DNA of 64,000 bases from a bacterium (GTDB lineage: Bacteria; UBP4; UBA4092; JAOAEQ01). A program made the position numbers and the translations under genes. Below, one piece after another: positions 12,656-31,873 of this stretch; positions within the stretch are counted from its first letter, which is position 1, and each line of letters starts with the position of its first letter. The notes beneath the pieces were generated by a model. It saw nothing but the letters and a program-made list of their open reading frames with translations. It did not search any database and was not told the DNA's origin. The stretch covers positions 1,190 through 65,189 of the forward strand of contig JAOAEQ010000005.1 of assembly GCA_026416715.1 (NCBI GenBank), in the 5' to 3' direction.

Positions 12656-14080
12656 TCAAAAATCAGAAAACACTTTCAGTCCCGCATGAATTTTCTTTTT
12701 TAAATCTTTGACATTCCTAATTCGCATAATTTCTCTACCAAATTGTCTCGGACGGAAATAGAACTGCCGCATCGCTTTCTTCTGTGCTTGTATTAAATCT
12801 GATGCGGTAAGATGTTCAGTCCGCATTACTGCGGAACCCTCTTCTTCGAACTGACTCCAATCGTCGGTAATCAGCCAATGGTTATCTTTAGCGATTTGAT
12901 ATAATTCGGTACCAGGAAAAGGTGTGGCGATATGGAAATTAACATAATCCGGATCGAGCTTTTTTGCAAATGAAATTGATTGGTCGATGGTCTCCCAAGT
13001 TTCTCCAGGTAACCCTATTATAAAATAGGCAAACGCTAAAATCCCCGCTTCTTTCGTCCATCGAATCGCCTGTTCTGCTTGAGCTAACGTTATTCTTTTT
13101 TTCGCTCTATCAAGTATCTCCTGATTACCCGATTCAATGCCATAGGAAATCAATTCACAACCTGCAGCGTGCATTAATTTCAACATTTCAAAATCTACGG
13201 TATCAACCCGGCTATTCCCAATCCAACGAAAGTTGAGTTTGCGCATTTGGATCATATTACATAACTCAACTGTCCACGATTTTTTTAAGGTTAATGCATC
13301 AGTCATAAAAACAATATTGCGGATATTGTATTGATTAATAACCAATTCAATTTCATCGCAAACATTCTGTACTGACCGCAGTCGAATTTTTTCACCCCAA
13401 ACCGCGCCTGCTCGACAGAACGTGCATTGATAAGGACAACCACGAGAGGGAATGATCGTAACAAATGGTTCTCCATCGAAAAATGGCATTCGATATTTTT
13501 GGTTTGGCAATAAATGACGCGCCGGAAATGGAATGGTATCTAAATCTGAAATTAATGGACGCCGTGAATTGATTTGGATTTGCCCGCTTTTATCTCGAAA
13601 CGCTAATCCAGAGATTTTACTCCAATCAGCATTAAACTCGTTTGCTAATTCTAATAATGTGTATTCCGCTTCTCCAATAAGAATAAAATCAGCCACGGAT
13701 GCAGCTAATGATTCATAGGGAAGCACGGTTACATGGGTTCCAGTAAAACCAAGTTTGAGTTTCGAATCCTGAGGTTGAGATTTCGAGATGAATTCAATTA
13801 CTGCTGCGTCATTATTAAACGTTGGCGTGGTCGTATGAATAACAATCAATTCAGGCGCGAAACGGTTTATCTGGTGCTGTAGTTCAATTATCGTGATACC
13901 CTCTGCCATGGCGTCTAGAATTTTACAATCATGACCTGACTGTAGCAATACTGCAGCTAGATATGCTAGTCCCGTTTGTGGCCAGAGTTCACCAGCAATA
14001 CTCTTTCTTCCGCAACGACCGAGTTCTTTCATATAAATAGTTCCGCTTAAATGCGGTGGATTCAATAATAATATTTTCAT
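12656..14080 (-). CDS. B12-binding domain radical SAM protein
   Basis: 474 aa; N-terminal B12-binding-like domain and CxxxCxxC cluster (GCPYQCTFC). Confidence 0.8.
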   Translation of the reverse strand: MKILLLNPPHLSGTIYMKELGRCGRKSIAGELWPQTGLAYLAAVLLQSGHDCKILDAMAEGITIIELQHQINRFAPELIVIHTTTPTFNNDAAVIEFISKSQPQDSKLKLGFTGTHVTVLPYESLAASVADFILIGEAEYTLLELANEFNADWSKISGLAFRDKSGQIQINSRRPLISDLDTIPFPARHLLPNQKYRMPFFDGEPFVTIIPSRGCPYQCTFCRAGAVWGEKIRLRSVQNVCDEIELVINQYNIRNIVFMTDALTLKKSWTVELCNMIQMRKLNFRWIGNSRVDTVDFEMLKLMHAAGCELISYGIESGNQEILDRAKKRITLAQAEQAIRWTKEAGILAFAYFIIGLPGETWETIDQSISFAKKLDPDYVNFHIATPFPGTELYQIAKDNHWLITDDWSQFEEEGSAVMRTEHLTASDLIQAQKKAMRQFYFRPRQFGREIMRIRNVKDLKKKIHAGLKVFSDF

Positions 14081-14175: not shown

Positions 14176-15015
14176 TTACTGAGCACGATGGATAAGAAGG
14201 TCGGCTAATAAACCGAGGATAGCGATTTCAACTCCTGTAACCACACAAGTGATCGTTGATACATCCATCAGTGTTCCTAGAATGAATTTGCTATATATCC
14301 CAATAAATAATCCAAGTAGGATTAACATGAGACTTACTGGTAAGAATATGCGGATTGGATTAAAATAAACAATAGTCCGCAGAATTAAAATAAAAAAATC
14401 AGCGGTATGTTTAATCGGCTTAATTTTTGATTGCCCAATTCGAGTCCGGTATTCTATTGGAACATATTTAACAAAATATCCATTGCAATGCAGCGCTAAG
14501 GTTAAAGTTGTGGTAAATGAAAATCCGTTTGGTAAGATGTGCCGGAATTGGTGAATTAAATCTTTTCGAAATACACGAAGTCCGGAGTTTAAATCTGGAA
14601 TTTGTGTCTCTGCAAGATAATTGGCTAGTTTCGATAGCGTCCATTTCGCTAATCTCCGTGAAGCGGGAATAGTTTTCCGTGCGCCAACAACCATGTCATA
14701 CTCGTTTCGTTCAGAAATTAACTGTGGGATAGCCTCTACAGGATATGTCCCATCAGCGTCAAGAATGAGTATCCAATCATATTTCGCTTGATTTACTCCG
14801 GTTTTAATTGCTGCGCCATATCCTCGATTTTCCGGATGAATGATAAGTTTAACCGGTTTATTTTTCACTATTTCAGCGGTTCCATCGGTTGACCCGTCAT
14901 CAATTACAATGAGTTCATATTCTTTTCCAGTTAATATGGAATTAATTTCATCAATAACTTTACCGATACTAGCCGATTCATTAAATGCTGGGATTATTAT
15001 GGTTAACGCTTCCAT
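14176..15015 (-). CDS. GT2 polyprenyl-phosphate sugar synthase (DPM1/ArnC/GtrB-like)
   Basis: IIIPAFNE...IVIDDGSTDGT...LDADGTYP motifs of GT2 family with C-terminal transmembrane helices. Confidence 0.8.
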   Translation of the reverse strand: MEALTIIIPAFNESASIGKVIDEINSILTGKEYELIVIDDGSTDGTAEIVKNKPVKLIIHPENRGYGAAIKTGVNQAKYDWILILDADGTYPVEAIPQLISERNEYDMVVGARKTIPASRRLAKWTLSKLANYLAETQIPDLNSGLRVFRKDLIHQFRHILPNGFSFTTTLTLALHCNGYFVKYVPIEYRTRIGQSKIKPIKHTADFFILILRTIVYFNPIRIFLPVSLMLILLGLFIGIYSKFILGTLMDVSTITCVVTGVEIAILGLLADLLIHRAQ

Positions 15016-15088: not shown

Positions 15089-16561
15089 TTATGCTTGTAT
15101 GAGCTCACGGTTGTCTTCTAGAGAGACAACCCGAACTATATAATATCCTGTGAACAATAGAATCAGTACCGCTACTATCGGTAAACTTTTTATCCATATA
15201 GGTAAACTTGATTGCCAAAGTTGCAGGAAAAATAAATCGATTATCCCTTGCCGGACAATTTCCCAATATCCGATTAAACTCGAATGTGCTGGAATATATA
15301 ATGAATACCATAACGCAGGTACCTGGGTGAGTAACCAGTGATGATAATCCATAAAACTTACGAGAATAGCGGTTATCTGAACAAACATACCAACCGCAGT
15401 CAAGAGCACAATCCAAGCCCAGAACAAGGAATGAGGTTTTCTAATATACTTTTCAAATAACGCTAAAACTGGTATCAACAAAAATATATGGATTTGGAAT
15501 ATATGCCGGGGACCCCAACACCATCCACCTGCCCAGCTTTCCCATTTAGCGTAAAATAAAAGATATACTACCGCAATTGCACAGCAGAAGTAAGATTCGT
15601 ATCGTTTTTCCTGCCAGAATGTTTTCAGTGCGATAAAGAACAAAAGTATCGGTGGCGAAAAAAGAAAAATACTCCTTCCTGAACTGAACAACAATCCATA
15701 TAACCCATCCAATAACGGATAGCTAAAAGTTAATCCTTCGGATTCGTAGCCGGTTGAAGTTACCGAACCGAACCGCACGTAATTATATAAGGCAACTAAT
15801 CCGCAAAATAATCCTATCGGGATTAACCAGAAGATTATAGGTCGAACTGCGGATTTAAACCATCGGGATGGAGTAACTGTTGTTAACCCAAACAATAAAT
15901 ATCCTAGATAGAGCGGAACTGTGATGATACTATCGATTCGCGTAAAAATCGCATAGCCAAGTGCACTTCCCGACCAAAGCAACCACCGGAGTTTATTGGT
16001 AAGTTTATAGGAATATAAACTATAAAATGCAAATAAGAGTAATAAGGTAGCTAATGGTTCGGAAAAGAAAGTTTTTGCATGTGGCATTGCCATTGTTGCC
16101 AGTCCATAGATTAATGTTACCAACAATGCTGCGCGTTTTGTATACCCTAAAACAATCCCAAAATGAAATAATAATAAACAGGTTACAGCGGTCACCACCT
16201 GATTAAATCGCGATACCGCTAATCGGGTAACATTTTCATATAGAGTTCTGCCAGGGTACCGAAACACTTGATTCCAATCTGCAGGAATAACCTGCACCAA
16301 CCCTGTCCCGAAATAATACAATGGTACTGCTAACAACGGTTGACCTAATCCGTAATGACCATAATATCTACCGCTCGCATCCGCTTGCGTGAATCGATCT
16401 CCACCGGGGACTAATGGTTGAATTGCAAATCCCTGAAATTGCGCCATACTTTCTGCCGTCCGAAACATTATTTCTTCATCTGGCGAATATAAATGGCCGC
16501 CCATGATCAGGGTATAAAACGCAAAGAAGAACAAGAAAATAGCGAGATATAATAACTTCAA
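15089..16561 (-). CDS. GT-C-type polytopic membrane glycosyltransferase (PMT/ArnT-like)
   Basis: 490 aa, about 12 hydrophobic segments, DE motif in the first loop (YSPDEEIMFR); adjacent to a polyprenyl-P-sugar synthase. Confidence 0.6.
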   Translation of the reverse strand: MKLLYLAIFLFFFAFYTLIMGGHLYSPDEEIMFRTAESMAQFQGFAIQPLVPGGDRFTQADASGRYYGHYGLGQPLLAVPLYYFGTGLVQVIPADWNQVFRYPGRTLYENVTRLAVSRFNQVVTAVTCLLLFHFGIVLGYTKRAALLVTLIYGLATMAMPHAKTFFSEPLATLLLLFAFYSLYSYKLTNKLRWLLWSGSALGYAIFTRIDSIITVPLYLGYLLFGLTTVTPSRWFKSAVRPIIFWLIPIGLFCGLVALYNYVRFGSVTSTGYESEGLTFSYPLLDGLYGLLFSSGRSIFLFSPPILLFFIALKTFWQEKRYESYFCCAIAVVYLLFYAKWESWAGGWCWGPRHIFQIHIFLLIPVLALFEKYIRKPHSLFWAWIVLLTAVGMFVQITAILVSFMDYHHWLLTQVPALWYSLYIPAHSSLIGYWEIVRQGIIDLFFLQLWQSSLPIWIKSLPIVAVLILLFTGYYIVRVVSLEDNRELIQA

Positions 16562-16577: not shown

Positions 16578-17747
16578 TTATGTAGTTCGGAAATATTCTC
16601 GAGTTACGATAAAGCCTGAGGAAATAAAGAAACCACTAAAAAATGCTATGATAGAAATGACTCCCTTTCTAGGCCATATATGTTGTTCTGGAACAACGGC
16701 TTTTGCAAAGATTTTTATATCTTCTACCTGTTCCGCTTTTGCAATTTTTGCTTGTTCTGCTTTTTCTGCTAACATAATATAGGTTTGTTTATATTTATCA
16801 ACTTCCCGTTGCGCTCGACTAATGAGTGTTTCGCCGGTAACAATTTCGTTCTGCAGTTTCTGTACCTCTTTTTCCAGCTGTTGAATCGTTTTATTGAGAT
16901 CATGTATCTGAATAGTAAGCATATCAATTCGCTTTTGTATCTGATTTCTTTCATCTGGAGAAAACTGAGGTCCAAGTTTATCTAAAAGATTTTGTGTAGT
17001 ACTTAGCTCATACAACATACTCGCTTGCAATCCACGATATCCCTGTTCTATCTTTTGTGTTTCAGTCGGTGTATAAACAGAAATAATGGTGGGTTGCTGC
17101 GCCCTGAATAGTGACGGAGCTGAATTTCCATCTAACTGCTGCAATTTACCAGCTAATTCGCTCCGTAAGTTTTCTAATTTATATTTCTCTTTGAGCTGTT
17201 TGACAATTTCTTCTGCCTGTTTCAGATTCTGTTCGGTGCTATCTAACTGGTTAGTTAATAATTGATATGCACGATCAATTTCCCGTGAACTTAAATGTTC
17301 GGTTCGAGCAACGAAAAGTTCTGCCCATTTATTTGCAATCGCTGCTGCGGTTTCTGGACTATCCGATTTCACAGTTAAATATATCACCGGAGTAAATATT
17401 GATTTCGGTTGTGATTCTATAACCACTTTTGTATTCATTTTCCGCTGTAATTCTTCGACGGTAATTTTTTTTAACTGTAATTGGTCAATGATTTCCTTAA
17501 CCAACTCCCGACTTTCTAACAGCGCTTGATAGGTTGGTGCACTAAATGCTGTCGGCTGAACATCAGTCTGAAATTTCGGCGGCATAACCAATAATGTCGC
17601 TTTGGCTTCATAAGTTTTCGGGATAAAAAAACTGATAATCAGCGCAATCATTCCACAGAATACACTACAGCCAATAATAAGATGTTTGTATTGCCAAAGA
17701 ATTTTCCCAACTTGTATGGTATATAAGTTTCCATTTTCACTGGTCAT
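16578..17747 (-). CDS. Wzz/GumC-like polysaccharide chain-length determinant protein
   Basis: N-terminal TM helix followed by PKTYEAKATLLVMPP, long coiled-coil periplasmic region, C-terminal TM helix. Confidence 0.65.
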   Translation of the reverse strand: MTSENGNLYTIQVGKILWQYKHLIIGCSVFCGMIALIISFFIPKTYEAKATLLVMPPKFQTDVQPTAFSAPTYQALLESRELVKEIIDQLQLKKITVEELQRKMNTKVVIESQPKSIFTPVIYLTVKSDSPETAAAIANKWAELFVARTEHLSSREIDRAYQLLTNQLDSTEQNLKQAEEIVKQLKEKYKLENLRSELAGKLQQLDGNSAPSLFRAQQPTIISVYTPTETQKIEQGYRGLQASMLYELSTTQNLLDKLGPQFSPDERNQIQKRIDMLTIQIHDLNKTIQQLEKEVQKLQNEIVTGETLISRAQREVDKYKQTYIMLAEKAEQAKIAKAEQVEDIKIFAKAVVPEQHIWPRKGVISIIAFFSGFFISSGFIVTREYFRTT

Positions 17748-17754
17748 AGATTGA

Positions 17755-19140
17755 TTATCTCGCTCCTTTACCGGTGAGCACTACCCGGATGGTTGAAAAT
17801 ATAATTTTTAAATCTAGCATTAATGAGATATTATAAACGTAAGCTAAATCGTATCGCAACTTGTTTTCTACCGAAGTATCATACCGGCCATGAATCTGGG
17901 CTAATCCCGTTAGTCCCGGACGCACTTTCAAACGCCGGGAATAAAAAGGTTCAAATTGATAAAATTTCTTGACAAATTCAGGCCGTTCTGGTCGCGGTCC
18001 AACCAAACTCATATCCCCTTTTAGAATATTCAATAATTGTGGGAATTCATCAATTCGTGTCTTTCGGAGAATAGCACCGAATCGAGTTATTCGGGGATCA
18101 TTTAAAGTCGCTAATACCGGTCCGGTTAAATCTTCTGCATTCTTGACCATGGTACGAAATTTATATAGCATAAATTGTTTCCCATCTTTACCGACACGTT
18201 GCTGCCGATAGAATACCGGACCAGATGAAGTTAATTTTATTAAAAGCGCTATGATACAAAACGGGATGAGCAAGACCACTAATGCGCCTAATGAAACTAC
18301 AATGTCCAGAAATCGTTTTATTACTGGATATACACCAGAAAATGCATGCGATTTGATTTCAATCAGTGGAATACCAGCAGTTTCCTGTAATGTTATCCGA
18401 CCGACGGTAACTTCATAGAGCGATGGTAGGACTTTCACTTTAACCCGAGCTCCGATATTCTCACATAAAGAAATTAAGCGTAATAAATCATTTGGCGCCA
18501 CTCCAGTTACCGCAATAATTAGTTCGGTAATTTTCAATTGGGAAACTAATTCATGTAATTTCGATATTTTCCCCAACATAGGCATGGATGGTTCTCCATT
18601 CGACGGAGTGATTTCTGCATCAATGATTCCTAATACTTGATGTCCATATTTAGCGTAATCTTTCATTTCGTCCATAATCTCCTGTCCTAACCGACCAGAA
18701 CTGATAATTGCTACTCGTGAAATAAAACTCCCTCGTGCCCGTTCGATTCGATAATATAAAATTCGCCAACTAGATAATAATACTATCGTCCATAACCAAT
18801 TGTATAGCAATAATCCCCGTGAAATATTAGCTGTCGGGAAAAAATACGTTCGACTAACTAACATAATGAGAAATGAAAATAACCAGCTTATTGTAACCGC
18901 CCAAAAGGTATTATAAATTATGTCGAATGGATATCGATCCTGGTCAAGTTTATATAATTGAAATAGAGCGAGTGTAATTAAATGAATTACAGTGATTAAA
19001 GGAGATAAATAGAAAAAAATATTTACGTGAACAGGTTGCGGTACGCCATGAAATTTAGTAAAAAAACCGAGACAGATTGCTGTATGAATTAAAATACAAT
19101 CTGCAAGGATTGCTGAACTAATGATAAGTTTTTGTTTCAT
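17755..19140 (-). CDS. Polyprenyl glycosylphosphotransferase (bacterial sugar transferase, WbaP/WcaJ-like)
   Basis: C-terminal catalytic domain motifs FYRQQRVGKDGKQFMLYKFRTM...DEFPQLLNILKGDMSLVGPRPERP; N-terminal TM helices. Confidence 0.85.
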   Translation of the reverse strand: MKQKLIISSAILADCILIHTAICLGFFTKFHGVPQPVHVNIFFYLSPLITVIHLITLALFQLYKLDQDRYPFDIIYNTFWAVTISWLFSFLIMLVSRTYFFPTANISRGLLLYNWLWTIVLLSSWRILYYRIERARGSFISRVAIISSGRLGQEIMDEMKDYAKYGHQVLGIIDAEITPSNGEPSMPMLGKISKLHELVSQLKITELIIAVTGVAPNDLLRLISLCENIGARVKVKVLPSLYEVTVGRITLQETAGIPLIEIKSHAFSGVYPVIKRFLDIVVSLGALVVLLIPFCIIALLIKLTSSGPVFYRQQRVGKDGKQFMLYKFRTMVKNAEDLTGPVLATLNDPRITRFGAILRKTRIDEFPQLLNILKGDMSLVGPRPERPEFVKKFYQFEPFYSRRLKVRPGLTGLAQIHGRYDTSVENKLRYDLAYVYNISLMLDLKIIFSTIRVVLTGKGAR

Positions 19141-19406: not shown

Positions 19407-20387
19407 CTATTGAATTCTGCCTGCCTTAACCAGTTCATTGTATATCCAGCGATAAGTTATTTCGAGTCCTTGTTCTAACGAAATCTGTGGCTCCCATTGT
19501 AACACTTGCCGAAGTCGAGTATTATCACTATTTCTCCCACGAACACCTTGTGGTTTCGTTAAATCGTATCGTTTAGTTATTTTCTTCCCAGCGATTTTTG
19601 CAACGATATCTACTAAATCATCTATACTGACTAATCGGTCAGTACCCAAATTCAATGGTTGATGATAATCGGACTGCATTAATCGATAGATACCTTCAAC
19701 ACAATCGTCAATGTAACAATATGACCGAGTCTGTTTTCCATCGCCCCAAACTTCTATTTCGTCAACTGGTTTTGCTAATGCTATTTTCCGGCATATAGCA
19801 GCAGGCGATTTTTCACGACCACCTTCATAAGCACCGAGTGGTCCATAAATATTATGGAATCGAACAACATAGGTTTTTAAACCGTAATCTTCATAGTAAT
19901 GACGGCACGCGCGTTCAGTATATAATTTTTCCCAACCATAACCATCTTCTGCATCTGCAGGATATGCATCTTCTTCTTTGAGTGGGATAACATTCGTATC
20001 TTTTTGACGATAGCCAGGATAGATACATGCAGATGAAGTGAAAAAGTATCGGGAAACACCCTGTAATCGCGCTGCTTCTAGCATATGCATATTAATCAGG
20101 ATATTGTCATAAACAATCTCTGCTTTATGCGTCTCAATGAACCCAATACCGCCCATATTTGCAGCTAGATTATATACCTGGTCGATTTTACGGACTGCCT
20201 GTAAACAATTATCCCAACGACGTAAATCTAGCAATTCAAATTCATCCGCTACCGTAGGTTCATATTCTGGCAATTTAATATCAACTCCACGAACCCAATA
20301 TCCTTTTTGTTTTAAAAATTTCACCAAGTGATGTCCGATAAATCCACCGGCGCCGGTAACCAAAATTTTTTCTAACCGATTTACCAT
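19407..20387 (-). CDS. GDP-mannose 3,5-epimerase homolog (SDR family)
   Basis: Extended similarity to GDP-mannose 3,5-epimerase as I recall it: GAGGFIGHH Rossmann loop, FFTSSACIYP, YGWEKL, RFHNIYGP..GGREK.PAA.CRK, GVRGRNSDN. Confidence 0.7.
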   Translation of the reverse strand: MVNRLEKILVTGAGGFIGHHLVKFLKQKGYWVRGVDIKLPEYEPTVADEFELLDLRRWDNCLQAVRKIDQVYNLAANMGGIGFIETHKAEIVYDNILINMHMLEAARLQGVSRYFFTSSACIYPGYRQKDTNVIPLKEEDAYPADAEDGYGWEKLYTERACRHYYEDYGLKTYVVRFHNIYGPLGAYEGGREKSPAAICRKIALAKPVDEIEVWGDGKQTRSYCYIDDCVEGIYRLMQSDYHQPLNLGTDRLVSIDDLVDIVAKIAGKKITKRYDLTKPQGVRGRNSDNTRLRQVLQWEPQISLEQGLEITYRWIYNELVKAGRIQ

Positions 20388-20400
20388 ACTGTTTTATCTC

Positions 20401-21678
20401 CTATTTTATGAATGTGCGTTTTGTTACATTACTAAGTAACGTATGATATGCTTGTACAGCGGTTATTAAATTGTATTTCTTTTCAATCGCATAACGCGCA
20501 TTATATCGCATTTCATTTAATCTTACCTGATTATTATACAGGGATAAAATCGCATTGAGCAACCCAACTTTATCTCCCGGTTCTACCACAACACCGCAAT
20601 TCTCCTCTTGGATAACCTTAGCAATTTCCGATTTCGCCGACATAATCGCGATGACGGGAACGCCAGCAGCTAAATAGCCAAAGGTTTTGGAAGGAACAGA
20701 CAACCCTTCTTGCCCACGAGCTAGTGAAACTAATCCCAAATGCGCACAGGATAATGAGAATCCGAGTTGTGCGCGTTCAACATAGGTATGAAACTGGCAA
20801 TTGGTTAAATGATTATCTTGCGCAAACTGCTGCATCCATTGTTTATAATGCCCTTCCCCAATAAACAGAAACTCTATATCTGGATACACCTGCAATTCTT
20901 TTACGACAGCCATAATTGTTTCCAGATCGTGGTATCGTCCCATATTGCCAGAATAACTAATTACGAATTTATCTTTTAACTTCCACTGGTCAATGTACGG
21001 ATTCGGTTTTCCGAACGCTTGCTGAATAAGACGGTCGTCACTCCAGATATGGATACGGTGGATTTTATCTCGGTCTTTTAAACCGTGCTGTTCGAACTTC
21101 TTAATAATTACTTCTTCCATACATCTACCGATAACTACGATAGCAGTCGCATGACGATATGTAAATTTATTAAACCATTCCCAGAGTTTTGCAACGAAAC
21201 TATCTTTTTTTAGTACACCAAGATTAATTGCACTATCCGGATACACATCGAAAATCAAATAGATATATGGTTTTCCGAGACCGATACTTTTTAAAATAGC
21301 ACAACTAACCGCAAGAAATGGCGGATTGGTTAAGACTAAAATCGGTCGTTTGCTGAAATCACACAATAGCTTGATAAAAGTTGAACTTGCATAGGTTATC
21401 TGGTTGATAATTCTTCCCCACAAATGCAACTTCGGAAATCGCGTTCCCCAAACCCGATGAATTCTTATTCCTTGATATTCAAGATATTTTGGAATTTTAT
21501 TTTGTTTTTTTAGAATGGTTACTGGACCACAGATAACTTCGATTTCAACTCCCAATTTTACTAATTCTTCACATAATTCGGTTAACGTCTGCCCAGTAGA
21601 AACGAGCTCTGGATAAAATAGTTGACAGAGAACCAATACTTTGATTCGATAATTATTGTTATTTTTATCCATTGACAA
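20401..21678 (-). CDS. GT4-family glycosyltransferase (WcaI-like)
   Basis: GT-B fold GT4-like sequence, N-terminal VLVLCQLFYPELVSTGQ typical of WcaI-type enzymes. Confidence 0.75.
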   Translation of the reverse strand: MSMDKNNNNYRIKVLVLCQLFYPELVSTGQTLTELCEELVKLGVEIEVICGPVTILKKQNKIPKYLEYQGIRIHRVWGTRFPKLHLWGRIINQITYASSTFIKLLCDFSKRPILVLTNPPFLAVSCAILKSIGLGKPYIYLIFDVYPDSAINLGVLKKDSFVAKLWEWFNKFTYRHATAIVVIGRCMEEVIIKKFEQHGLKDRDKIHRIHIWSDDRLIQQAFGKPNPYIDQWKLKDKFVISYSGNMGRYHDLETIMAVVKELQVYPDIEFLFIGEGHYKQWMQQFAQDNHLTNCQFHTYVERAQLGFSLSCAHLGLVSLARGQEGLSVPSKTFGYLAAGVPVIAIMSAKSEIAKVIQEENCGVVVEPGDKVGLLNAILSLYNNQVRLNEMRYNARYAIEKKYNLITAVQAYHTLLSNVTKRTFIK

Positions 21679-22792
21679 CCGCTATGTAAGCATCTAAAGT
21701 TGTTTTTGCCATTTTTTCCCAGACGAATAATTTTGCCCGTTGATATCCTTTTTCAATCAATTGTTTTCGTAAAACGGGTTGGGTTAGAATAGCATGGATT
21801 GCCTCAGCTATTGCTTGGGGGTTTTCCGGATCAATAAGCAGTCCTGCATCACCGATAATCTCGGGTAACGCAGTTCGGTTTGCCGCTATTACTGGACACC
21901 CGAATTTCATTGCTTCTACAACCGGGATGCCGAACCCTTCAAATAATGAAGGATGAACTACCAGCTCAGCTAATTGGTATAACCCAGCTAAATCAGGATC
22001 ACCTATATAACCAAGAATCAATACTCGATTGGGATTGATTTTATACTGTTTTATATGTTCTTGGATTGCTGATAATGATTGTAGTTTTAATCCAACCAAA
22101 ACCAAATCCACATTGCATTGGTCTGCGATTCGCGCATAAGCTTCCAGTAAACGTTTAAAGTTTTTATGGGGTAAGAGTGATGCAACTGATAAAATAAACG
22201 GAGCTTTAAGATTATACTTCGTTTGTATCTTTTCGTTAGACGGTATTGACAATTCAAAGATATCAAACTTCGATGCTGGATAGGTTACGATTATTTTATC
22301 TCTCGGTATATTCAATAACATCGCAATATCTTTTTTCGAATATTCTGATAATGTAATAATTCTATCTGCTTTTTTTGCACTTCTCGGAATAAAATACTGC
22401 CAATACCATAATCGAAATGTACTAAAGTTTTCCGGATAATATTTATATTGCATATCTGGAATAGTTACAATCGTATGGCTATCTATTGATAATGGTCCAA
22501 CATATCCTGGTGAATGGAGTAGGTCAATTCGTTCTTTTAGACCTAATTTCGGGAGAATAGCCTGTTCCCAGAAAACCCGAGTTGCTTTTATACGACTGGA
22601 GAAATTACATAGTATTCGCTTGAAATTCGGAAGTTTGAAATCAAACGAATCATGATTTTCGCGATTGGTAAAAAGTATATATTCATTTTGTGAATCAATT
22701 TTTGTTAAGCCATACAGTAATCCACGAACATAGGTCTCGGTTCCACCGACTTTCCCTGGAAGCAAGAATAAGGTATTAATTCCAATTCGCAT
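21665..22792 (-). CDS. GT4-family glycosyltransferase
   Basis: GT4 motifs (VGGTETYVRGL; C-terminal EGFGIPVVEAM); 14-bp overlap with the downstream GT4 gene. Confidence 0.8.
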   Translation of the reverse strand: MRIGINTLFLLPGKVGGTETYVRGLLYGLTKIDSQNEYILFTNRENHDSFDFKLPNFKRILCNFSSRIKATRVFWEQAILPKLGLKERIDLLHSPGYVGPLSIDSHTIVTIPDMQYKYYPENFSTFRLWYWQYFIPRSAKKADRIITLSEYSKKDIAMLLNIPRDKIIVTYPASKFDIFELSIPSNEKIQTKYNLKAPFILSVASLLPHKNFKRLLEAYARIADQCNVDLVLVGLKLQSLSAIQEHIKQYKINPNRVLILGYIGDPDLAGLYQLAELVVHPSLFEGFGIPVVEAMKFGCPVIAANRTALPEIIGDAGLLIDPENPQAIAEAIHAILTQPVLRKQLIEKGYQRAKLFVWEKMAKTTLDAYIAVVNG

Positions 22793-22800
22793 AAAAAATA

Positions 22801-24252
22801 TTATTTAAATACCGTTTGTTTAAGTTTAGCTAATTTGTGGATACAAACTAATAACCCAGCAAAAAACCAAAAATGGAGGTTATTTGGGAAACTTTCGAAA
22901 GTAACCCCGCCTAAAGCCGAAATGATTAGAATAATTATGCAGGCAAGCAGACCAAGAACGATTGTTTTTTCGAAAGATTCAGGGAGTATTCTGAATAGTC
23001 TAAACCCGAAACGCAATATACTTCCTAGTATCCAGATGAATAAAAATAAGCCGAACATTCCCATTTCAATTAGGAGTAATAAATAATAATTATGAGTTAA
23101 TGTTGCATCAGGTATTTCATAAAGGACTCCGACTGGACCAACCATACCTAACCCAATACCTAATAAATTCGAATCGAGCATCCGCTGGAATAATACCGTC
23201 CATTCATCTAATCGTTCCCGAATCGTGATATGGCTGGGGTCAAACGTTGTAATTCGACTGAATAATGCGGTCAACGCTAATGGTTGAATGAAATAAGCTA
23301 TAACGACTGCAATGCAAGCTATCAGCAGAAATCTAATAATAATTCTCGATTTCCCGGCGAGAAATCCGATAACCAGCGATGCGATAAATACTCCAAGCCA
23401 GGCACGTCGCGAGAAAGTAAACACTAAATTTATCCCACCAAAAAATAACGTTAATCCGAGCAAATACCGCCAACTTTTCACTAATTTATTGCGATAAACG
23501 AGCGCACCAAGACAGAATCCAACTAACATTGCCATAAATATCGCATACGCATTCGCACTATGTTCATCACCAAACACGGTTAATCGGCCAACAATATGTT
23601 CCGGCATGACCTCAAACCAAGTTCCTAATCCAATTTTAGTCGTAAAAATGCGGTATAGCCCCCACAGTGAAAAAAGCAACCCGCTCCACAGGAAAAGTTC
23701 AATCGCTTTTTGGATATCCTGCGCTCTGGTTAAAATTGCTATAGTTAAGAGAAAGACAAGAATAAATTCTACAGTAGACCGTAGCCCCCAAAAACCCGCT
23801 TTTACCTCTGGACTAACAAAAGTATAGATAAATGCTAATCCAATAAAACATAGTATCGGAATGTAAACTGGATAAAGTTCATTTTCCTTAATCGGTAAAC
23901 GATATCGTTTATGCACCAGATGTAAACCCCATACTCCTAGTAAACTTAATAACCAGATATCTTTCGGAACGCGAAGTAACGTTTTGGGTATTTCAACTCC
24001 GGTAAGTTGGGCAACGAGTTTAGTTTCACTTACTACGATTAAAAAAGGAGCTGATGCAATTAATAGTATTAACCCCGATTCTACATGGTAATACAGGAAT
24101 ATCAGCCAAATAAATGTAACTAGCACCCATACTACTATCCAAGGTTCCAAGTTGACACAAATTGCTGATATAAGTAGCAGTAGAAGTAACCAAAGATAAC
24201 CTTGCCGGAAATAGGACGATTTTGAAACCGCGATTTCTTTGACGTTGAGCAT
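22801..24252 (-). CDS. O-antigen ligase/polymerase family membrane protein (Wzy-like)
   Basis: 483 aa polytopic membrane protein placed between glycosyltransferases. Confidence 0.6.
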   Translation of the reverse strand: MLNVKEIAVSKSSYFRQGYLWLLLLLLISAICVNLEPWIVVWVLVTFIWLIFLYYHVESGLILLIASAPFLIVVSETKLVAQLTGVEIPKTLLRVPKDIWLLSLLGVWGLHLVHKRYRLPIKENELYPVYIPILCFIGLAFIYTFVSPEVKAGFWGLRSTVEFILVFLLTIAILTRAQDIQKAIELFLWSGLLFSLWGLYRIFTTKIGLGTWFEVMPEHIVGRLTVFGDEHSANAYAIFMAMLVGFCLGALVYRNKLVKSWRYLLGLTLFFGGINLVFTFSRRAWLGVFIASLVIGFLAGKSRIIIRFLLIACIAVVIAYFIQPLALTALFSRITTFDPSHITIRERLDEWTVLFQRMLDSNLLGIGLGMVGPVGVLYEIPDATLTHNYYLLLLIEMGMFGLFLFIWILGSILRFGFRLFRILPESFEKTIVLGLLACIIILIISALGGVTFESFPNNLHFWFFAGLLVCIHKLAKLKQTVFK

Positions 24253-24414: not shown

Positions 24415-25590
24415 TTATTTTGATGGGGATGATAAAAGTTGTCGGTAACAAGTTTCGATTGCAGCGACGTTCTGTTGAATATTAAAATGCTGCTCGAGTC
24501 GGTTACGACCTTGTTCTCCAAAGATTTTTCTTAATTCCGGACAATTTAGTAGTGTTTGAATTGCGGTCGCTAATGCTTCTACATCATTTGGAGGAACTAA
24601 AATACCAGTTTCATTATCAACAACAATTTCAGGAACGCCACCAACGTTACTTGCAACTACTGGTTTCCAATATAACATCGCTTCAAATAATACGGTAGGT
24701 AATGGGTCTGGCATAATTGAACTATGCACGATAATATCAGTCATCTGCATTAATATTGAAATATCGGTTCGATATCCGGTGAAAATCACTACCGATTGTA
24801 GATCTAATTGTTTCACTAATTGTTCAAGACACTGCTTATAGCCTCGTTCTCTCTCTTGAATAATATCACCGACAATAAGGAATTTTACTGGGATCTGCGT
24901 TCGTGAAATTAGTTTTTTTACTGCGGAGATAAAAATATGCTGACCTTTCCATTGCGCAATTTGACCAAACATACTTATAACAATTGCATCTGGCGGTATA
25001 TTGAGCTTACTTTTCGTTTTCTGAATTATCTCTTGGGATAGTTGTTTTGCTTGCAAGCAATCCATGCCATTATAGATAACCGTACATTTGTCTCGTGAAA
25101 CGCCTAATTCAATCAATCTGGTTTTAACAGCGTTTGAAACTGCGATAATCCGCGTTGCTAGACGTCCGGCAAATCCGATAAATTGCCGGTTAAACCAGCA
25201 GGGGGTAACGATATCATGCATATGCCAGATTATCGGCCGATGCATTAATTTAGCGGCAAAACCGCTGTATAACATTGCTGTAAACGAATTCGCATGCAGT
25301 AAATCTATTTTCTCTTTCTGAATCATGGTTTTCAATTGGGCAGTTGTTTTCCAGAAATTTGGAATATATAGTATTAATCGAATCGGATTATACGAACGTA
25401 CGAGCAACGGAATTTTAATTGGATAGGTTTTGATTCCAAGTTTAGTTATTTCAGATAACAATGTCCCGTCGGAGGGTGCAATTACGACCGGTTCAAATTT
25501 CGCTCGGTCAAGATGCGAAAGCAAATTCAATAGCACTCGTTCAGCTCCACTAATTTTTCCAACATGGTTTATATACAGTATACGTTTCAT
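24415..25590 (-). CDS. GT4-family glycosyltransferase
   Basis: GT4-like N-terminal domain (GKISGAERVLLNL) and C-terminal nucleotide-sugar binding region. Confidence 0.8.
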   Translation of the reverse strand: MKRILYINHVGKISGAERVLLNLLSHLDRAKFEPVVIAPSDGTLLSEITKLGIKTYPIKIPLLVRSYNPIRLILYIPNFWKTTAQLKTMIQKEKIDLLHANSFTAMLYSGFAAKLMHRPIIWHMHDIVTPCWFNRQFIGFAGRLATRIIAVSNAVKTRLIELGVSRDKCTVIYNGMDCLQAKQLSQEIIQKTKSKLNIPPDAIVISMFGQIAQWKGQHIFISAVKKLISRTQIPVKFLIVGDIIQERERGYKQCLEQLVKQLDLQSVVIFTGYRTDISILMQMTDIIVHSSIMPDPLPTVLFEAMLYWKPVVASNVGGVPEIVVDNETGILVPPNDVEALATAIQTLLNCPELRKIFGEQGRNRLEQHFNIQQNVAAIETCYRQLLSSPSK

Positions 25591-25708: not shown

Positions 25709-27022
25709 CTATTTCCTGTTAAATATAATGTTTTTCATATAATGAAAATCAATAAATAACGGGCGAATGTTGAATTGTTTGTTTAAAATAATCCAATAGA
25801 TCAATAAAACTGAAGCAGAAGTAATCAACGAAGTTATTGCTGCACCGAAAACGCCAAGTTTAGGAATTAATGCTAGATTAACCAGGATATTTATCACTGC
25901 GCCAAACCAGGTTAATTGCGCATTCCATTCTGGTTTTCCAATTCCATTAAATACACTTGCAGCAATCCGATAAAATGGATGCAGCAAACCCCAGAACGCA
26001 AACACTCGCACCAAACTTGCTGCCTCTTGATATTTTTCGCCATAAAAAACTCGGAGAATAAATTCAGGGAAAAAAAATAAAATTAATGTTACTGGGATAG
26101 CTAACAGAAATAAGAACCCTGATGCGGTTTCGTATATTTTCCGAATACGTTCCCGACTGATTTCTCCTAAAGACAAATCAATCTTCGCACTTTCTGGAAA
26201 TACAATTGCATTCATTGAATCATTTATCACGGTCGCAAAATTCGTGAATAAATGCGCGATATTATATACCGCGATGCTCATCGGACTAACCATAAAATAT
26301 GCCAGCATAAATAAATCTATTTTCGAATAGATTTGGACTCCGGCGCTATTGATAAACGAATAAGATGCAAACCGAGTAATACGTTTAAGCCATTCTATTT
26401 GTAGCTGATTTTTGAATTTTAGATACTCCCGTGCAAACCATAGTCCGGGAATTGAACTGATAAAATAACTTAATGCAACAATCCAGATAACTTCAATCCC
26501 GTTGGATAAATGCCCGGTAAGTTTGAAAAGAGTCAGAAAAAAAACAAAGTTACCTAAAACAAAACAATCAGTCCAAAAAACCTGTTTCAACTTTTGTTTT
26601 GCAATCAGAAGTTGGCGAATGAAATAATTGCATAATACTGCAAAAAGGATTAACGGTACCCAACGTAATAGAATCGCTAATCGTGGAACATGGAATATTG
26701 TCGCGATACCTTCGGAAAAGAAAAACAAGATACTTGATGAAAATATCGTCAGAATGAATTTAAGCAATAATGAATGGAAGTTTACGAGTGGAAGCTCAGA
26801 ATCATCTTTCTCTGCAGCGTATTTGATTAGCGCCTGCCCAATGGATAAATCACCAAACAAAATTAAAAAGACACGAATACTATCGCACAGAACCAGTACT
26901 CCATATTCTTCTTTTGGAATACTGCGTACTACCGTAATAACATAAACGAAAGAAAACAATGCTATGATGATACTATCTAAAATCGCATAAACACTACGAT
27001 GTATATATACATTAATTTTCAT
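25709..27022 (-). CDS. Wzx-like oligosaccharide flippase (MOP superfamily)
   Basis: 437 aa, about 12 TM segments, polysaccharide-biosynthesis-protein-like organisation. Confidence 0.65.
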   Translation of the reverse strand: MKINVYIHRSVYAILDSIIIALFSFVYVITVVRSIPKEEYGVLVLCDSIRVFLILFGDLSIGQALIKYAAEKDDSELPLVNFHSLLLKFILTIFSSSILFFFSEGIATIFHVPRLAILLRWVPLILFAVLCNYFIRQLLIAKQKLKQVFWTDCFVLGNFVFFLTLFKLTGHLSNGIEVIWIVALSYFISSIPGLWFAREYLKFKNQLQIEWLKRITRFASYSFINSAGVQIYSKIDLFMLAYFMVSPMSIAVYNIAHLFTNFATVINDSMNAIVFPESAKIDLSLGEISRERIRKIYETASGFLFLLAIPVTLILFFFPEFILRVFYGEKYQEAASLVRVFAFWGLLHPFYRIAASVFNGIGKPEWNAQLTWFGAVINILVNLALIPKLGVFGAAITSLITSASVLLIYWIILNKQFNIRPLFIDFHYMKNIIFNRK

Positions 27023-27140: not shown

Positions 27141-27929
27141 CTATTTTTTAGGTAATGATTTTTTAAGGTTGTTTTTTGCCAATAAAATTCTAAATGGACT
27201 TTCGATTTGTTCAATGTGACGAATAGAAAAACCCATTTTTTCAAGAATCATACGGATATTCTTTTTATTAAAAACATACCAATGGCCGTATTTAGTTCCA
27301 TACATGGTATTGGCATAGGTTATTTTTCCCATAGATAGTTTATAGATGAACCGATGGAAACTATGAATTAAACTGTCTTCACTTGGTGTTTCAATAACTA
27401 ATAACCCATCTGGTTTAATCCAATCAGCGATCTGTTGCAGGGAATGAACCGGTTCCGAAAGATGTTCTAAAATATTAAACATGGTTACAACATCGAAAAA
27501 TTCTTTGGGAAACTCCGCTGAATGTACCGATGCCACTTGAATCTGAATGTCAAATTGCTTTTTAGCAAACTCCGCTGCATACCGACTTATATCAACACCA
27601 TAGCATACCCATCCATGCTGTTTCGCGACATTAAGAAAATATCCGAAACCACATTCAACATCAAGTACCGTTTTGCCGTTAGTTTTTTTCAAACGTTCAA
27701 TTTTTTTTAAGCGATTTATAAAAGTGCGGTCGAAAATTTCACGGTTTAATTCATAGATATCCTCATGCCCACCATAGTGTTCAATGATTTCTTCTTGGAA
27801 CGTACCGTTTACATAGACCAATCCACAGTGAGGACATTCAACAACTAGCTTACCGGGAATACTATACAAGGGATGTGGCGGATATTTCTCATTGTCTTGA
27901 CAAATACAACATGGTTTAATATACATCAT
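27141..27929 (-). CDS. Class I SAM-dependent methyltransferase with N-terminal Cys4 zinc ribbon
   Basis: CCIC...CPHC zinc ribbon followed by methyltransferase motif I (VLDVECGFGYF) and later motifs. Confidence 0.75.
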   Translation of the reverse strand: MMYIKPCCICQDNEKYPPHPLYSIPGKLVVECPHCGLVYVNGTFQEEIIEHYGGHEDIYELNREIFDRTFINRLKKIERLKKTNGKTVLDVECGFGYFLNVAKQHGWVCYGVDISRYAAEFAKKQFDIQIQVASVHSAEFPKEFFDVVTMFNILEHLSEPVHSLQQIADWIKPDGLLVIETPSEDSLIHSFHRFIYKLSMGKITYANTMYGTKYGHWYVFNKKNIRMILEKMGFSIRHIEQIESPFRILLAKNNLKKSLPKK

Positions 27930-29188: not shown

Positions 29189-30556
29189 TTATCTTTCTAT
29201 GTGACCTTCCAAAATATAAGATAAATAATCTTCCTTTTGCCCGATGCTCTGATATAAATCCATTAAGAACCGACCAAATATTTTTCGTAACCAAATCCAT
29301 CGTTCTCCAATTGGGATAGATAAATCCATAAACTCTACCGGTAATCGGCGTAATGTTAATTGTGATACAAGCTGAGATGCTTTTCTTAAGTGGAATTCAG
29401 CTTCAGGTAAATCATTGATTATTGCTATCGCTCGGAAAGCAAAATGTAAATGATATAGGCAACTGATCATTTTCCCGATTTTCCCTTGCCAATACCAATT
29501 CCACCATCTATAAATTGTCCTTTGGTTGAAATGTTTTGCTACTAATGTTAATTCGTATACTTTTCGTCTGAATTTGTATTCATTAAACAACCGCGTTTGG
29601 TATTTTTCAAGGATGTTCGGTAGTTCAGTATCTGGAACTTTAATATTATTAACAGCTAACAGATGTTTACCTGCCTGGATAAAATACGCTAACGTTTGCT
29701 GGTATAACTGTTCTGTTGACTCAGGAAAAATGAACTTGAACTTTCCATCCAAACATTGATTTAGAAAATCTGGAAATGAAGAATTAAAATAACGCCGAAG
29801 TTGTAAATCTGGATAATGCTCACGAATATAATCGACTCGTTCTCTAAATGAAGACAATAAAACTTTTTCCCATGGTAGGAGATAAGTGGTTAAATCCAAT
29901 GAATTCCGACATAAAACGAAATTGAATAATTCTTGGTTATTATTTCCTTCCGTTCTTCCGTTTTTAGGTTTTGTAATCAGCCAGGATCGTGGTACATATA
30001 ACGCTATTGCCCATAATCTCCATAAAATCACTTCCGCTAATTCCCGGTAATCCAGATTATCGCAATTAATTTCCGGAATTTCTGAACGTATATCGGTTCC
30101 GAAGATAGTTTTCCCGATCTTTTTTGCTTCATAATGACGGATTAATGGCGGTAGTTGCTGTACCTGGCGTAATGAAATATAACTGCAATCAATATGAAAT
30201 AACGGGGAATTTTTATTCCATTTTTTTTCTAATTGCGCGAGTTGAACAAATAATCGCTTCCGTTCAGTGTTGCTAGGTTTTCTTTTCGATACGGCTAATA
30301 ATTCAATATCACTCCATAATGAAATCTGCCCATCAGGTTCAATCCGATAACTAAATTCACCTCGAGCGGTACTACCCAGCAGTAAAATAGATAGAATATC
30401 AGATACACTTTTCTCTGTAATAACTTGAATTTCAGATAAGTAGTTGTGAATAAGGGTAGGATAACCAAATTCATTGCAGAGCGATAGCAAACTCGATTGT
30501 TCCATATGAATGAATAAAATTACCGCTGATTTCTGAATATCTTTTAGTGGATTCAA
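29189..30556 (-). CDS. Hypothetical protein with Pol-beta-like nucleotidyltransferase motif
   Basis: 455 aa; LLLGSTARGE...SDIELL resembles an hG[GS]...DhEh nucleotidyltransferase core but with atypical spacing; the rest is helical and unrecognised. Confidence 0.4.
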   Translation of the reverse strand: MNPLKDIQKSAVILFIHMEQSSLLSLCNEFGYPTLIHNYLSEIQVITEKSVSDILSILLLGSTARGEFSYRIEPDGQISLWSDIELLAVSKRKPSNTERKRLFVQLAQLEKKWNKNSPLFHIDCSYISLRQVQQLPPLIRHYEAKKIGKTIFGTDIRSEIPEINCDNLDYRELAEVILWRLWAIALYVPRSWLITKPKNGRTEGNNNQELFNFVLCRNSLDLTTYLLPWEKVLLSSFRERVDYIREHYPDLQLRRYFNSSFPDFLNQCLDGKFKFIFPESTEQLYQQTLAYFIQAGKHLLAVNNIKVPDTELPNILEKYQTRLFNEYKFRRKVYELTLVAKHFNQRTIYRWWNWYWQGKIGKMISCLYHLHFAFRAIAIINDLPEAEFHLRKASQLVSQLTLRRLPVEFMDLSIPIGERWIWLRKIFGRFLMDLYQSIGQKEDYLSYILEGHIER

Positions 30557-30711: not shown

Positions 30712-31683
30712 TTAGCGTATAATGGCAAATCCACCAACTTTAAACAATTCTAACCATAATGGTTCTAATCCACCCACTTCAAATTCTAGGGTAACATAAT
30801 TGTTCCGGGTAACGACCTTACTTTTCCAGTCAATTTTCTGGGCGATAAACTTCCTCCGAAATGCTTCTCCAATAAACTCGGCATCATCAATAACATCCTT
30901 AATCCTATTTATTTTGGCAACGTCAAACAGCATCGTTCCACGCAATCTATCCGAATTAATAATATCCATCTCAATCACAATACTACGAATATCTTCTGCA
31001 GAAAGTAACAAACTCATTTTCCATTTTTTCTCACGCAAAAGCAGGAATTTAGCAAAATGTTGGTGATTATTATTGCAAAAAATTATTATATCTCGTCGAG
31101 GTATTGAGCTGGCTCCTCCAGCTACAATATCCGGTACCGTGATTATATGTTTGATTTTACGCAAATAAACCTGAATGGTCGTTTGTATTGCCGCTAGGTT
31201 ATTCCCGATAATTAATTGATGGTCTAAAATTGCGTATCCAATCTTTTTCGTCCATGAAGTATCCGTCCCGTAAATAATCTGAAAACCGGATTCCGTATAG
31301 GTAGTCCAATTCGATTTTGCACCTAATTCATTACTCAATTTATTTTTTATAAACTTTATAAACTCAGTATTATTGTTAACTGCTTGCCGATAAGTTAATA
31401 TTACTATATATTGGAGATTATTAGGATCAGAATCAGGATAAAGTGCTGCTATACCGGAAACCGGTGTGAGTTTGGCTACAATCTCGCGTATCGAACTTTT
31501 TCTCGGGATAGTAACCCAGTTGTCAAATAGCCAGGATATTCCTGGGTCATTTGATTTGACATCTACTTTTAAATAAACAATTGCATTTGATGCCACTAGT
31601 ACTTGTTCTTCTGCATTTATCAGTCCAAAATATGAAAATAATATCACCACACTTACTAAAATTAATGTGTAATTCGGTTGCAT
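30712..31683 (-). CDS. Hypothetical secreted or membrane-anchored protein
   Basis: Start taken at internal Met (MQPNYTLILVSVVILFSYFGLINA signal-like segment); no recognisable domain. Confidence 0.45.
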   Translation of the reverse strand: MQPNYTLILVSVVILFSYFGLINAEEQVLVASNAIVYLKVDVKSNDPGISWLFDNWVTIPRKSSIREIVAKLTPVSGIAALYPDSDPNNLQYIVILTYRQAVNNNTEFIKFIKNKLSNELGAKSNWTTYTESGFQIIYGTDTSWTKKIGYAILDHQLIIGNNLAAIQTTIQVYLRKIKHIITVPDIVAGGASSIPRRDIIIFCNNNHQHFAKFLLLREKKWKMSLLLSAEDIRSIVIEMDIINSDRLRGTMLFDVAKINRIKDVIDDAEFIGEAFRRKFIAQKIDWKSKVVTRNNYVTLEFEVGGLEPLWLELFKVGGFAIIR

Positions 31684-31873
31684 ATTTGTTTTTTTATAAT
31701 AACACTTTTTAAAACATAAATATTCTATCATATCAATATCATATCACTACATCATTCTCTATCTTAGCACTTTTCTTTTCAAACAGTATTAGATTCTGTC
31801 CTTAAAATACTTTTCCTTAAAAAATTAATGTAAGTAGATAACAAAATAAATTTATTATCAGTTATTCTTTCGG

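Follow-up and report, generated by a model that had tools for sequence, protein, structure and literature searches.

It has been previously reported that GDP-mannose 3,5-epimerase (abbreviated GME, or GM35E) can be recognised by a small set of defining residues, which in the Arabidopsis enzyme (AtGME) are S143, Y174 and K178 as a triad, C145 and K217 as acid/base pair, R306 as acidifier of the cysteine, R243 in contact with the diphosphate, and N203 (PMC8787198). The same review notes that GME can be told from GDP-fucose synthase by its base, which is lysine rather than histidine, and by the acidifier of its cysteine, which is arginine rather than lysine, that GalE lacks the Cys/Lys acid/base pair, and that mislabelling between GME and GalE or GMER is a common annotation error (PMC8787198). 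The sole bacterial GME to be biochemically characterised is MfGM35E of Methylacidiphilum fumariolicum SolV, which is adjoined by the glycosyltransferase I0K0Y0 (PMC6678494). Here we examine a GME candidate encoded at positions 19407 to 20387 of a 64,000-nucleotide stretch of contig JAOAEQ010000005.1 (hereafter the window, to which all coordinates refer; G+C about 37%), which comes from a bacterial metagenome-assembled genome (MAG). The open reading frame (ORF) very probably encodes a functional NAD+-dependent GME (EC 5.1.3.18), an activity that we infer from sequence, with a product consumed in the Wzx/Wzy-type polysaccharide cluster that surrounds the gene.

The gene itself is as follows.

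19407 to 20387, minus strand: GME (GM35E) orthologue, 326 amino acids (aa), ATG start, single intact ORF

A preliminary description of this stretch had likened the protein to plant GME by its motif blocks, and every block that it quoted is found: FFTSSACIYP (aa 115-124), YGWEKL (150-155), RFHNIYGP (176-183), GGREKSPAAICRK (189-201) and GVRGRNSDN (281-289). The coordinates it gave were exact; the strand had been left unstated, and the plus-strand frame over the same interval is riddled with stop codons. A phmmer search against PDB chains returned GMEs as the top five matches, namely the Arabidopsis chains 2c59, 2c54, 2c5a and 2c5e together with 8sg0 (355-357 bits, E ~1e-105). The best of these was Arabidopsis GDP-mannose 3',5'-epimerase 2c59 (357 bits, E = 8.7e-106, residues 7-321), and 8sg0 scored 356.6 bits; the next family, GDP-fucose synthase, reached 117.5 bits and the best GalE-type chain ~109 bits. 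In a Smith-Waterman alignment spanning 312 residues, 48.7% were identical to AtGME. In addition, Pfam placed the protein in the NAD-dependent epimerase/dehydratase family of extended short-chain dehydrogenases/reductases (SDRs; Epimerase PF01370, 168.7 bits; PF16363, 115.1 bits), and several homologs of 80-87% identity bear the Joint Genome Institute (JGI) label GDP-D-mannose 3',5'-epimerase. The preliminary description had proposed a comparison of the BLASTP/HMM type as the check on its assignment, and the outcome bears it out, in that the closest homologs are GMEs rather than GalE or other SDRs and the catalytic residues are present. By all criteria that sequence can test, the 326-aa protein is a GDP-mannose 3,5-epimerase (GM35E/GME, CEP1, extended SDR).

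Alignment to AtGME revealed that eight of the eight defining residues are identical in the window protein. S143, C145, Y174 and K178 of the plant enzyme correspond to S119, C121, Y150 and K154, and N203, K217, R243 and R306 correspond to N179, K193, R221 and R285. The window GME thus carries the [ST]xnYx3K catalytic triad (S119/Y150/K154), the acid/base pair (C121/K193), the diphosphate contact R221 together with N179, and the Cys-acidifying arginine (R285), and it opens with the glycine motif G12-x-x-G15-x-x-G18 (TGAGGFIG, aa 10-18). When the query was aligned with 82 bacterial homologs, the arginine proved invariant in 83/83 sequences and the three glycines were kept in 80-81 of the 83, while the defining residues were either invariant or deviated in one sequence across the homologs. 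MfGM35E (UniProt I0K0X9; Gevaert et al. 2019) was represented in our comparison by the congeneric orthologue from Methylacidiphilum sp. Yel (locus L049) and not by the SolV sequence. The query is 63.7% identical to this orthologue, whose critical arginine is residue 281; the arginine published for MfGM35E bears the same number, R281 (PMC6678494).

With each GTDB species represented by a single genome, the scan gave at least 600 loci for GME relatives, distributed over Acidobacteriota, Gemmatimonadota, Myxococcota, Planctomycetota, Chloroflexota, Omnitrophota, Actinomycetota, Alphaproteobacteria and others, and including Methylacidiphilum sp. Yel. Homologs from other phyla share 55-82% identity with the query (median 70%), whereas the host's GatB (56382-57809) is only ~62% identical to that of the nearest named phyla (Nitrospinota, Nitrospirota, Binatia and Thermodesulfobacteriota). 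Because GME is conserved above the level of this housekeeping protein, the identities indicate that the gene has probably experienced strong constraint, lateral transfer, or both.

The GME gene belongs to an extended series of minus-strand genes that looks like a Wzx/Wzy-dependent polysaccharide cluster; the genes are given here in the order of transcription.

27141 to 27929, minus strand: S-adenosylmethionine-dependent methyltransferase (Pfam), first in transcription order
25709 to 27022, minus strand: Wzx-type flippase of the multidrug/oligosaccharidyl-lipid/polysaccharide (MOP) type (Polysacc_synt, MatE, MurJ)
24415 to 25590, minus strand: GT4c glycosyltransferase (Pfam/NCBIfam profile scans)
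22801 to 24252, minus strand: membrane protein with Wzy_C/O-antigen-ligase domain, polymerase or ligase (PF04932, 55.7 bits)
21665 to 22792, minus strand: GT4b glycosyltransferase, overlapping the start of GT4a by 14 nt
20401 to 21678, minus strand: GT4a, a GT-B glycosyltransferase distantly WcaI-like (Pfam GT4 domains, NCBIfam)
20398 to 20402, minus strand: Shine-Dalgarno sequence AGGAG, 10 nt upstream of the GME ATG and overlapping the GT4a TAG stop
17755 to 19140, minus strand: polyprenyl-phosphate hexose-1-phosphate transferase (priming, WcaJ-like; Bac_transf, CoA_binding_3)
16578 to 17747, minus strand: Wzz/GNVR chain-length determinant (polysaccharide co-polymerase), without kinase domain
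15089 to 16561, minus strand: putative GT-C-like membrane glycosyltransferase, with weak LA_3751/LA_3752 and PMT_2 similarity
14176 to 15015, minus strand: GT2 glycosyltransferase, similar to polyprenyl-phosphate hexose synthases
12656 to 14080, minus strand: B12-binding radical SAM protein at the distal cluster edge, beside the GT2

Direct reading of the sequence gives an intergenic gap of 13 nt between the GT4a stop and the GME ATG. This gap, together with the Shine-Dalgarno sequence overlapping the stop, fits a predicted co-transcription and coupled translation of GT4a and GME; on the downstream side, 266 bp separate GME from the priming transferase. Consensus scans for promoters and terminators over 17.5-28 kb stayed at chance level (43 against 43.9 expected; 6 against 7.4) and therefore set no operon boundaries. 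A search with Rfam at the gathering threshold gave only a tRNA-Pro, with no regulatory RNA near the locus. The priming transferase scored 435.7 bits with TIGR03025 (cut-off 295.55) and 378.6 bits with the WcaJ model, which is below the cut-off of 410.75, and is 35% identical to E. coli WcaJ over 346 aa. The matches of the protein at 15089-16561 to NF047440 (45.4 bits) and PMT_2 (23.3 bits) are both under cut-off.

The gene directly upstream of GME encodes GT4a, which carries the Pfam domains Glycos_transf_1 and Glyco_trans_4_4. Among curated families it scores highest with the WcaI family NF007640 (143.6 bits, residues 13-406 against 2-395 of 411), and the WcaI equivalog TIGR04007 gives 59.6 bits against a cut-off of 800. 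E. coli K-12 WcaI (b2050) is labelled a colanic-acid fucosyltransferase in RefSeq; GT4a is the only glycosyltransferase of the window that matches it, with 24% identity over 389 aa. Judged by these scores, GT4a is WcaI-like and not a curated member of the WcaI family. It has no BLAST similarity to GT4b or GT4c of the window, and a sequence search of the PDB with GT4a gave no match at E <= 1e-3. An AlphaFold2 model of GT4a (predicted local distance difference test 89, predicted template modelling score 0.86) was matched by Foldseek to the GT4 enzymes 6tvp, 3c4q, 3mbo and 7qsg with template modelling scores of 0.70-0.75 at 12-17% identity. The fold neighbours comprise GlgM, MshA, BshA and a mycobacterial mannosyltransferase, and the predicted structure confirms the GT-B/GT4 fold. 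Homologs of GT4a number at least 490 in metagenomes. The glycosyltransferase beside the Methylacidiphilum GME shares 33% identity with E. coli WcaI (401 aa aligned) and presumably corresponds to I0K0Y0.

L-fucose is 6-deoxy-L-galactose, and L-galactose is its 6-hydroxy analogue. Furthermore, fucosyltransferases have been documented to accept GDP-L-galactose (PMC8787198). For these two reasons GT4a is, by analogy, a reasonable candidate for an L-galactosyltransferase. In the open-access literature searched we found no bacterial L-galactosyltransferase, the only papers under that name being on plants and snails; on L-galactose in O-antigens the same literature gave nothing specific beyond PMC6678494 and PMC8787198.

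Comparison across genomes revealed that the pairing of GME with a WcaI-like GT4 is not confined to the window. A GT4a homolog was present in 15 of 82 GME loci, and in 13 of these 15 it was co-directional with GME and no more than 400 bp away; the controls GT4b and GT4c were adjacent to GME in 0/5 and 0/4, respectively. Among the loci paired in this way are those of SAR324, Gemmatimonadota, Omnitrophota, a Clostridia MAG, Pyrinomonadaceae, Ca. Uabimicrobium, Chloroflexota, Rhodospirillales, Vineibacter and Methylacidiphilum. In the reverse test, three of four diverse GT4a homologs (52-60% identity) adjoined a GME orthologue. Of these three, one comes from a metagenome of the JGI, one from a MAG labelled Hodarchaeota and one from a Bacteroidales MAG; the fourth homolog abutted a transposase. 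The GMEs recovered in this way are 48-61% identical to the query and carry GGREK.PAA and YGWEK. Taken together, these results demonstrate that the GME/WcaI-like GT4 pairing is conserved across phyla and holds from either gene, an observation that is modestly new.

A census of the immediate neighbours of GME by Pfam (127 neighbours in 78 genome loci, with ORFs of more than 600 aa left out, several of which were probably spurious) was dominated by glycosyltransferases and sugar-modifying enzymes: GT2 (14), GT1/GT4 (14) and WecG/TagA-type glycosyltransferases (11), followed by other SDRs (6), UDP-glucose/GDP-mannose dehydrogenases (3), carbamoyltransferases (3), ManC (2) and priming transferases (2). 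As a rule, then, bacterial GME is housed in glycan-assembly clusters. The idea that GT4a might be the universal partner of GME was rejected on the same counts, GT2 and WecG/TagA-type enzymes being about as frequent.

Two further loci were observed in the course of this comparison. A Saganbacteria-type locus (L081) has another GME in a glycan-assembly cluster. The locus on GCA_048887025.1 (L085), labelled Candidatus Hodarchaeota archaeon, is very similar to the window, with two GT4 genes, GME, a GT4a-like gene, a Bac_transf priming transferase, Wzz and Phosphodiest in succession; such a bacterial-looking arrangement on an Asgard-binned contig could reflect mis-binning or inter-domain transfer.

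It has been pointed out that natural glycosyltransferases using GME products are still sought, for L-galactosides, L-gulosides and glycorandomisation (PMC8787198). The GME-linked GT4 family supplies a concrete and testable candidate for such users. That the GT4a family as a whole consists of widespread, dedicated GDP-L-galactose (or GDP-L-gulose) glycosyltransferases of bacteria is a tentative proposal, to which we give somewhat less than even weight. If it is true, envelope polysaccharides containing L-galactose would be common in uncultured bacteria, with a WcaJ/WcaI initiation of the colanic-acid kind in which L-galactose replaces L-fucose.

By analogy with AtGM35E and MfGM35E, Y150, K154 and S119 with bound NAD+ would oxidise C4 of GDP-D-mannose, after which the C121 thiolate, stabilised and acidified by R285, and K193 would deprotonate and reprotonate C5 and C3 in either order, and NADH would re-reduce the 4-keto group. 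The expected outcome is a substrate-dominated equilibrium of GDP-mannose with GDP-L-galactose as the major product, GDP-L-gulose and GDP-D-altrose. The likeliest consumer would be the upstream GT4a, adding an L-hexose, most probably L-galactose, to the lipid-linked sugar laid down by the WcaJ-like priming transferase. The latter would make undecaprenyl-diphosphate-hexose, and the repeat unit would be flipped by Wzx, polymerised by the Wzy-like protein and sized by Wzz. Irreversible transfer would then pull the unfavourable epimerase equilibrium forward, and it has been reported that a downstream transferase consuming one epimer pulls flux through GME (PMC6678494).

The preliminary description had held that an L-hexose enters a glycan, and the context supports this view because GME lies in a Wzx/Wzy cluster and is tightly linked to a recurrent WcaI-like GT4. 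We infer the transferred sugar (L-galactose preferred over L-gulose or D-altrose), its acceptor and the type of glycan (O-antigen or exopolysaccharide). Several points weigh against the explanation given here. The 143.6 bits of GT4a fall under the WcaI-family cut-off of 276, it is only 24% identical to E. coli WcaI, and its fold neighbours are uninformative on the sugar donor. GME has three recurrent glycosyltransferase partners, of which the WcaI-like GT4 is one, so that the pairing is not universal, and adjacency to GME is not proof that GT4a takes the epimerase product rather than GDP-mannose. We looked for manC and manB in the window and found neither; GDP-mannose is therefore supplied from elsewhere in the genome. 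In addition, GME homologs have been proposed to supply L-gulose, as for bleomycin (BlmG) and a Thermoplasma lipid (PMC6678494, PMC8787198).

Three other explanations of the locus were weighed against the assignment of a GME feeding the surrounding cluster. That a GDP-L-fucose synthase (GMER/Fcl) or a GalE-type 4-epimerase has been mistaken here for a GME has next to no probability. The top NCBIfam match is indeed the GDP-L-fucose synthase model NF047922, and NCBI itself names the protein only 'NAD-dependent epimerase/dehydratase family protein'; the Fcl model comes first because NCBIfam has no GME model, and its 144 bits stand against a cut-off of 500, just as the 82.3 bits of the GalE model TIGR01179 stand against 262.3. 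Among PDB chains GME scored 357 bits and Fcl 117 bits, and identity to E. coli Fcl is only 29.5%. Furthermore, alignment places His179 and Lys283 of E. coli Fcl opposite Lys193 and Arg285 of the query, and the query has the Cys/Lys pair that is absent from GalE (PMC8787198). Since the discriminating residues Lys193 and Arg285 and all eight defining residues match GME, confusion with GalE or GMER is excluded; on scores and residues together both identities were rejected and are effectively refuted.

It is improbable, in our estimation, that the protein is a GME-family enzyme with another profile, forming GDP-L-gulose by C5-only or GDP-D-altrose by C3-only epimerisation or acting on another GDP-hexose, with a glycan containing L-gulose or a rare sugar as the result. 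The review of the family raises single 3- or 5-epimerases among the homologs, and the characterised GMEs release three products (PMC8787198); BlmG-type homologs are proposed suppliers of L-gulose, and product ratios are not fixable from sequence alone. On the other hand, the residues for both epimerisations are all kept, the Methylacidiphilum orthologue of the characterised double epimerase is 63.7% identical, and the linked glycosyltransferase is fucosyltransferase-like, which fits the L-galacto configuration best. We consider it very unlikely that the epimerase is real and its product goes outside the cluster polysaccharide, into a small-molecule pathway of the ascorbate or antibiotic kind or into another glycoconjugate. 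Bacterial GME homologs have been implicated in the antibiotic sugars of bleomycin and A201A, and the 266-bp gap sets GME apart from the priming transferase gene; however, the window ORFs that were scanned contain no secondary-metabolite genes and no homologs of the plant ascorbate genes VTC2 or VTC4 (GDP-L-galactose phosphorylase and L-galactose-1-phosphate phosphatase), GME is co-directional with and embedded among glycosyltransferase, priming transferase, Wzx and Wzy genes, and its neighbours in 78 other loci are overwhelmingly glycan-assembly genes. Consumption of the GME product within the cluster is the explanation that we prefer.

The preliminary description had also pointed to a gmd/rmd-like pair in the same stretch, expected to yield GDP-D-rhamnose or a related 6-deoxyhexose. 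The pair lies 25 kb from GME.

47147 to 48088, minus strand: RMD-like SDR (GDP-4-keto-6-deoxy-D-mannose reductase-like), 313 aa (PDB matches, loop)
45965 to 47062, minus strand: atypical GMD-like SDR, 365 aa with a 40-aa N-terminal extension (profile and PDB scores, loops)

Both are extended SDRs of PF16363 (GDP_Man_Dehyd) and are 37-38% identical to each other. The rmd part of the claim stands: the 313-aa protein is clearly RMD-like, with 302 bits to A. thermoaerophilus RMD 2pk3 (GDP-6-deoxy-D-lyxo-4-hexulose reductase) and 199.6 bits to RMD 6x3b, its FNHTGPGQKPDFV aligns with FNHIGPGQ of RMD as an FNHTGPGQ loop, and the RR-loop region is deleted. The gmd part stands less well, in that the 365-aa protein falls under the GMD cut-off (TIGR01472, 171.3 bits against 415) and is of the GMD type in its loops only; it is 31% identical to E. 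coli Gmd, and its best PDB match is RMD 2pk3 (210.6 bits), ahead of GMD 1rpn (152.8 bits). The loops that align with GMD motifs are GLIRRHS, FNHEGPRRGLQFVT, SSEE and YAVSK, of which SSEE is also kept in RMD. In particular, GLIRRHS corresponds to the 'RR' segment of GMD and FNHEGPRRG..FVT to FNHESPxRG..FVTRK, and both are absent from the 313-aa paralog and from RMD. We take the GLIRRHS and FNHEGPRRG loops to be GMD signatures, on our reading of the alignments and general knowledge. The 365-aa protein may represent a divergent clade of GDP-sugar 4,6-dehydratases, and it is plausible from these sequence features that the two form a dehydratase and reductase pair yielding GDP-D-rhamnose or GDP-6-deoxy-D-talose. 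Between the pair and GME lie three unannotated ORFs, an ArnC/PgfS-like GT2, proteins with tetratricopeptide repeats (TPRs) and CarboxypepD_reg, and two C25 peptidases. The earlier suggestion that two GDP-sugar branches are combined in one locus is a plausible hypothesis.

Other genes of the window deserve mention in their own right. The ORFs at 29189-30556, 30712-31731 and 31874-34639 (all minus; 455, 339 and 921 aa) remained without a match in Pfam and NCBIfam even when thresholds were relaxed, and lie between methyltransferase/phosphodiesterase-like genes and the ArnC/PgfS-like GT2 at 35354-36277. Tandem paralogs of 1152 and 881 aa at 39770-43228 and 43241-45886 (both minus) each contain a Peptidase_C25 domain of the gingipain type (299.6 and 258 bits); they stand downstream of the SDR pair and upstream of the CarboxypepD_reg protein (37363-39519) and the TPR protein (36293-37366), and are unusual company for a glycan locus. 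The plus-strand gene at 1173-3251 encodes a 692-aa protein that has TPRs at its C-terminus and a domain resembling the protein O-mannosyltransferase TMEM260 (128 bits); taken with the ArnC/PgfS-like GT2, it hints that the organism may have a second periplasmic glycosylation system dependent on a lipid carrier. At 53398-54768 (plus) we observed a 456-aa fusion of a TatD-type hydrolase (aa 5-254, 278 bits) with a Radical_SAM domain (aa 273-440, 70 bits). For the radical SAM protein at the cluster edge (12656-14080), the best model is HpnJ (297.7 bits against a cut-off of 577.6), and a role in the C-methylation of a sugar or lipid, or in a rearrangement, is conceivable. Finally, an LptF/LptG-family permease ORF at 48324-49448 (plus) overlaps by 154 nt a 756-aa ORF at 49295-51565 (plus) without a Pfam match; the latter probably has an over-called start, or it is an unusual LptG-like partner. 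The LptF/G gene indicates a diderm with lipopolysaccharide (LPS).

Comparison with described systems places the locus as follows. E. coli WcaI resembles GT4a in its GT4/GT-B type, its size of about 410-425 aa and an alignment that runs the full length. It is encoded next to the genes for GDP-L-fucose synthesis and near WcaJ, which parallels the order GT4a, GME and priming transferase in the window; the colanic acid arrangement is wcaJ...wcaI-gmm-fcl-gmd, and the window has GME in place of Gmd/Fcl. The donor of WcaI is GDP-L-fucose, and the sugar-nucleotide enzyme linked to GT4a is GME. E. coli Fcl/WcaG (PDB 1bws, 1e6u) shares with GME the extended-SDR fold, a GDP-sugar substrate, double epimerisation at C3 and C5, and the catalytic cysteine (C109 in Fcl, C121 in the query); unlike GME, it takes a 4-keto-6-deoxy substrate from GMD and uses up NADPH (PMC8787198).

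The plant enzyme (PDB 2c59, 2c54, 2c5a, 2c5e) has all catalytic and substrate-binding residues in common with the query, as well as the long motifs SSACIYP, RFHNIYGP, GGREK.PAA.CRK and GVRGRNSDN. The Arabidopsis structures are reportedly the work of Major et al. 2005. AtGME differs in its length of ~377 aa with N- and C-terminal extensions and in its GxxGxxA motif, which is GxxGxxG in the query, and the plant enzyme serves ascorbate and cell-wall synthesis, whereas the window gene sits in the context of a bacterial envelope polysaccharide. Closest of all is the Methylacidiphilum enzyme. MfGM35E is likewise bacterial, ~320-326 aa long and without the plant-type extensions, the Methylacidiphilum orthologue has an identical GxxGxxG motif, S/Y/K triad, C/K pair and arginine, and a WcaI-like glycosyltransferase lies directly beside its GME, as in the window. 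The two differ in host, the window coming from a low-GC (about 37%) MAG lineage, and in context, which is more loosely 'LPS-related' for MfGM35E, whereas the window gene is found in a full Wzx/Wzy cluster that includes a priming transferase. The GME family is systematically under-annotated because NCBIfam has no model for it, as the generic NCBI name illustrates, and the locus adds one more confidently assigned bacterial GME. The window GME is thus a further member of a family that is already characterised in plants and one bacterium, reviewed, and widespread.

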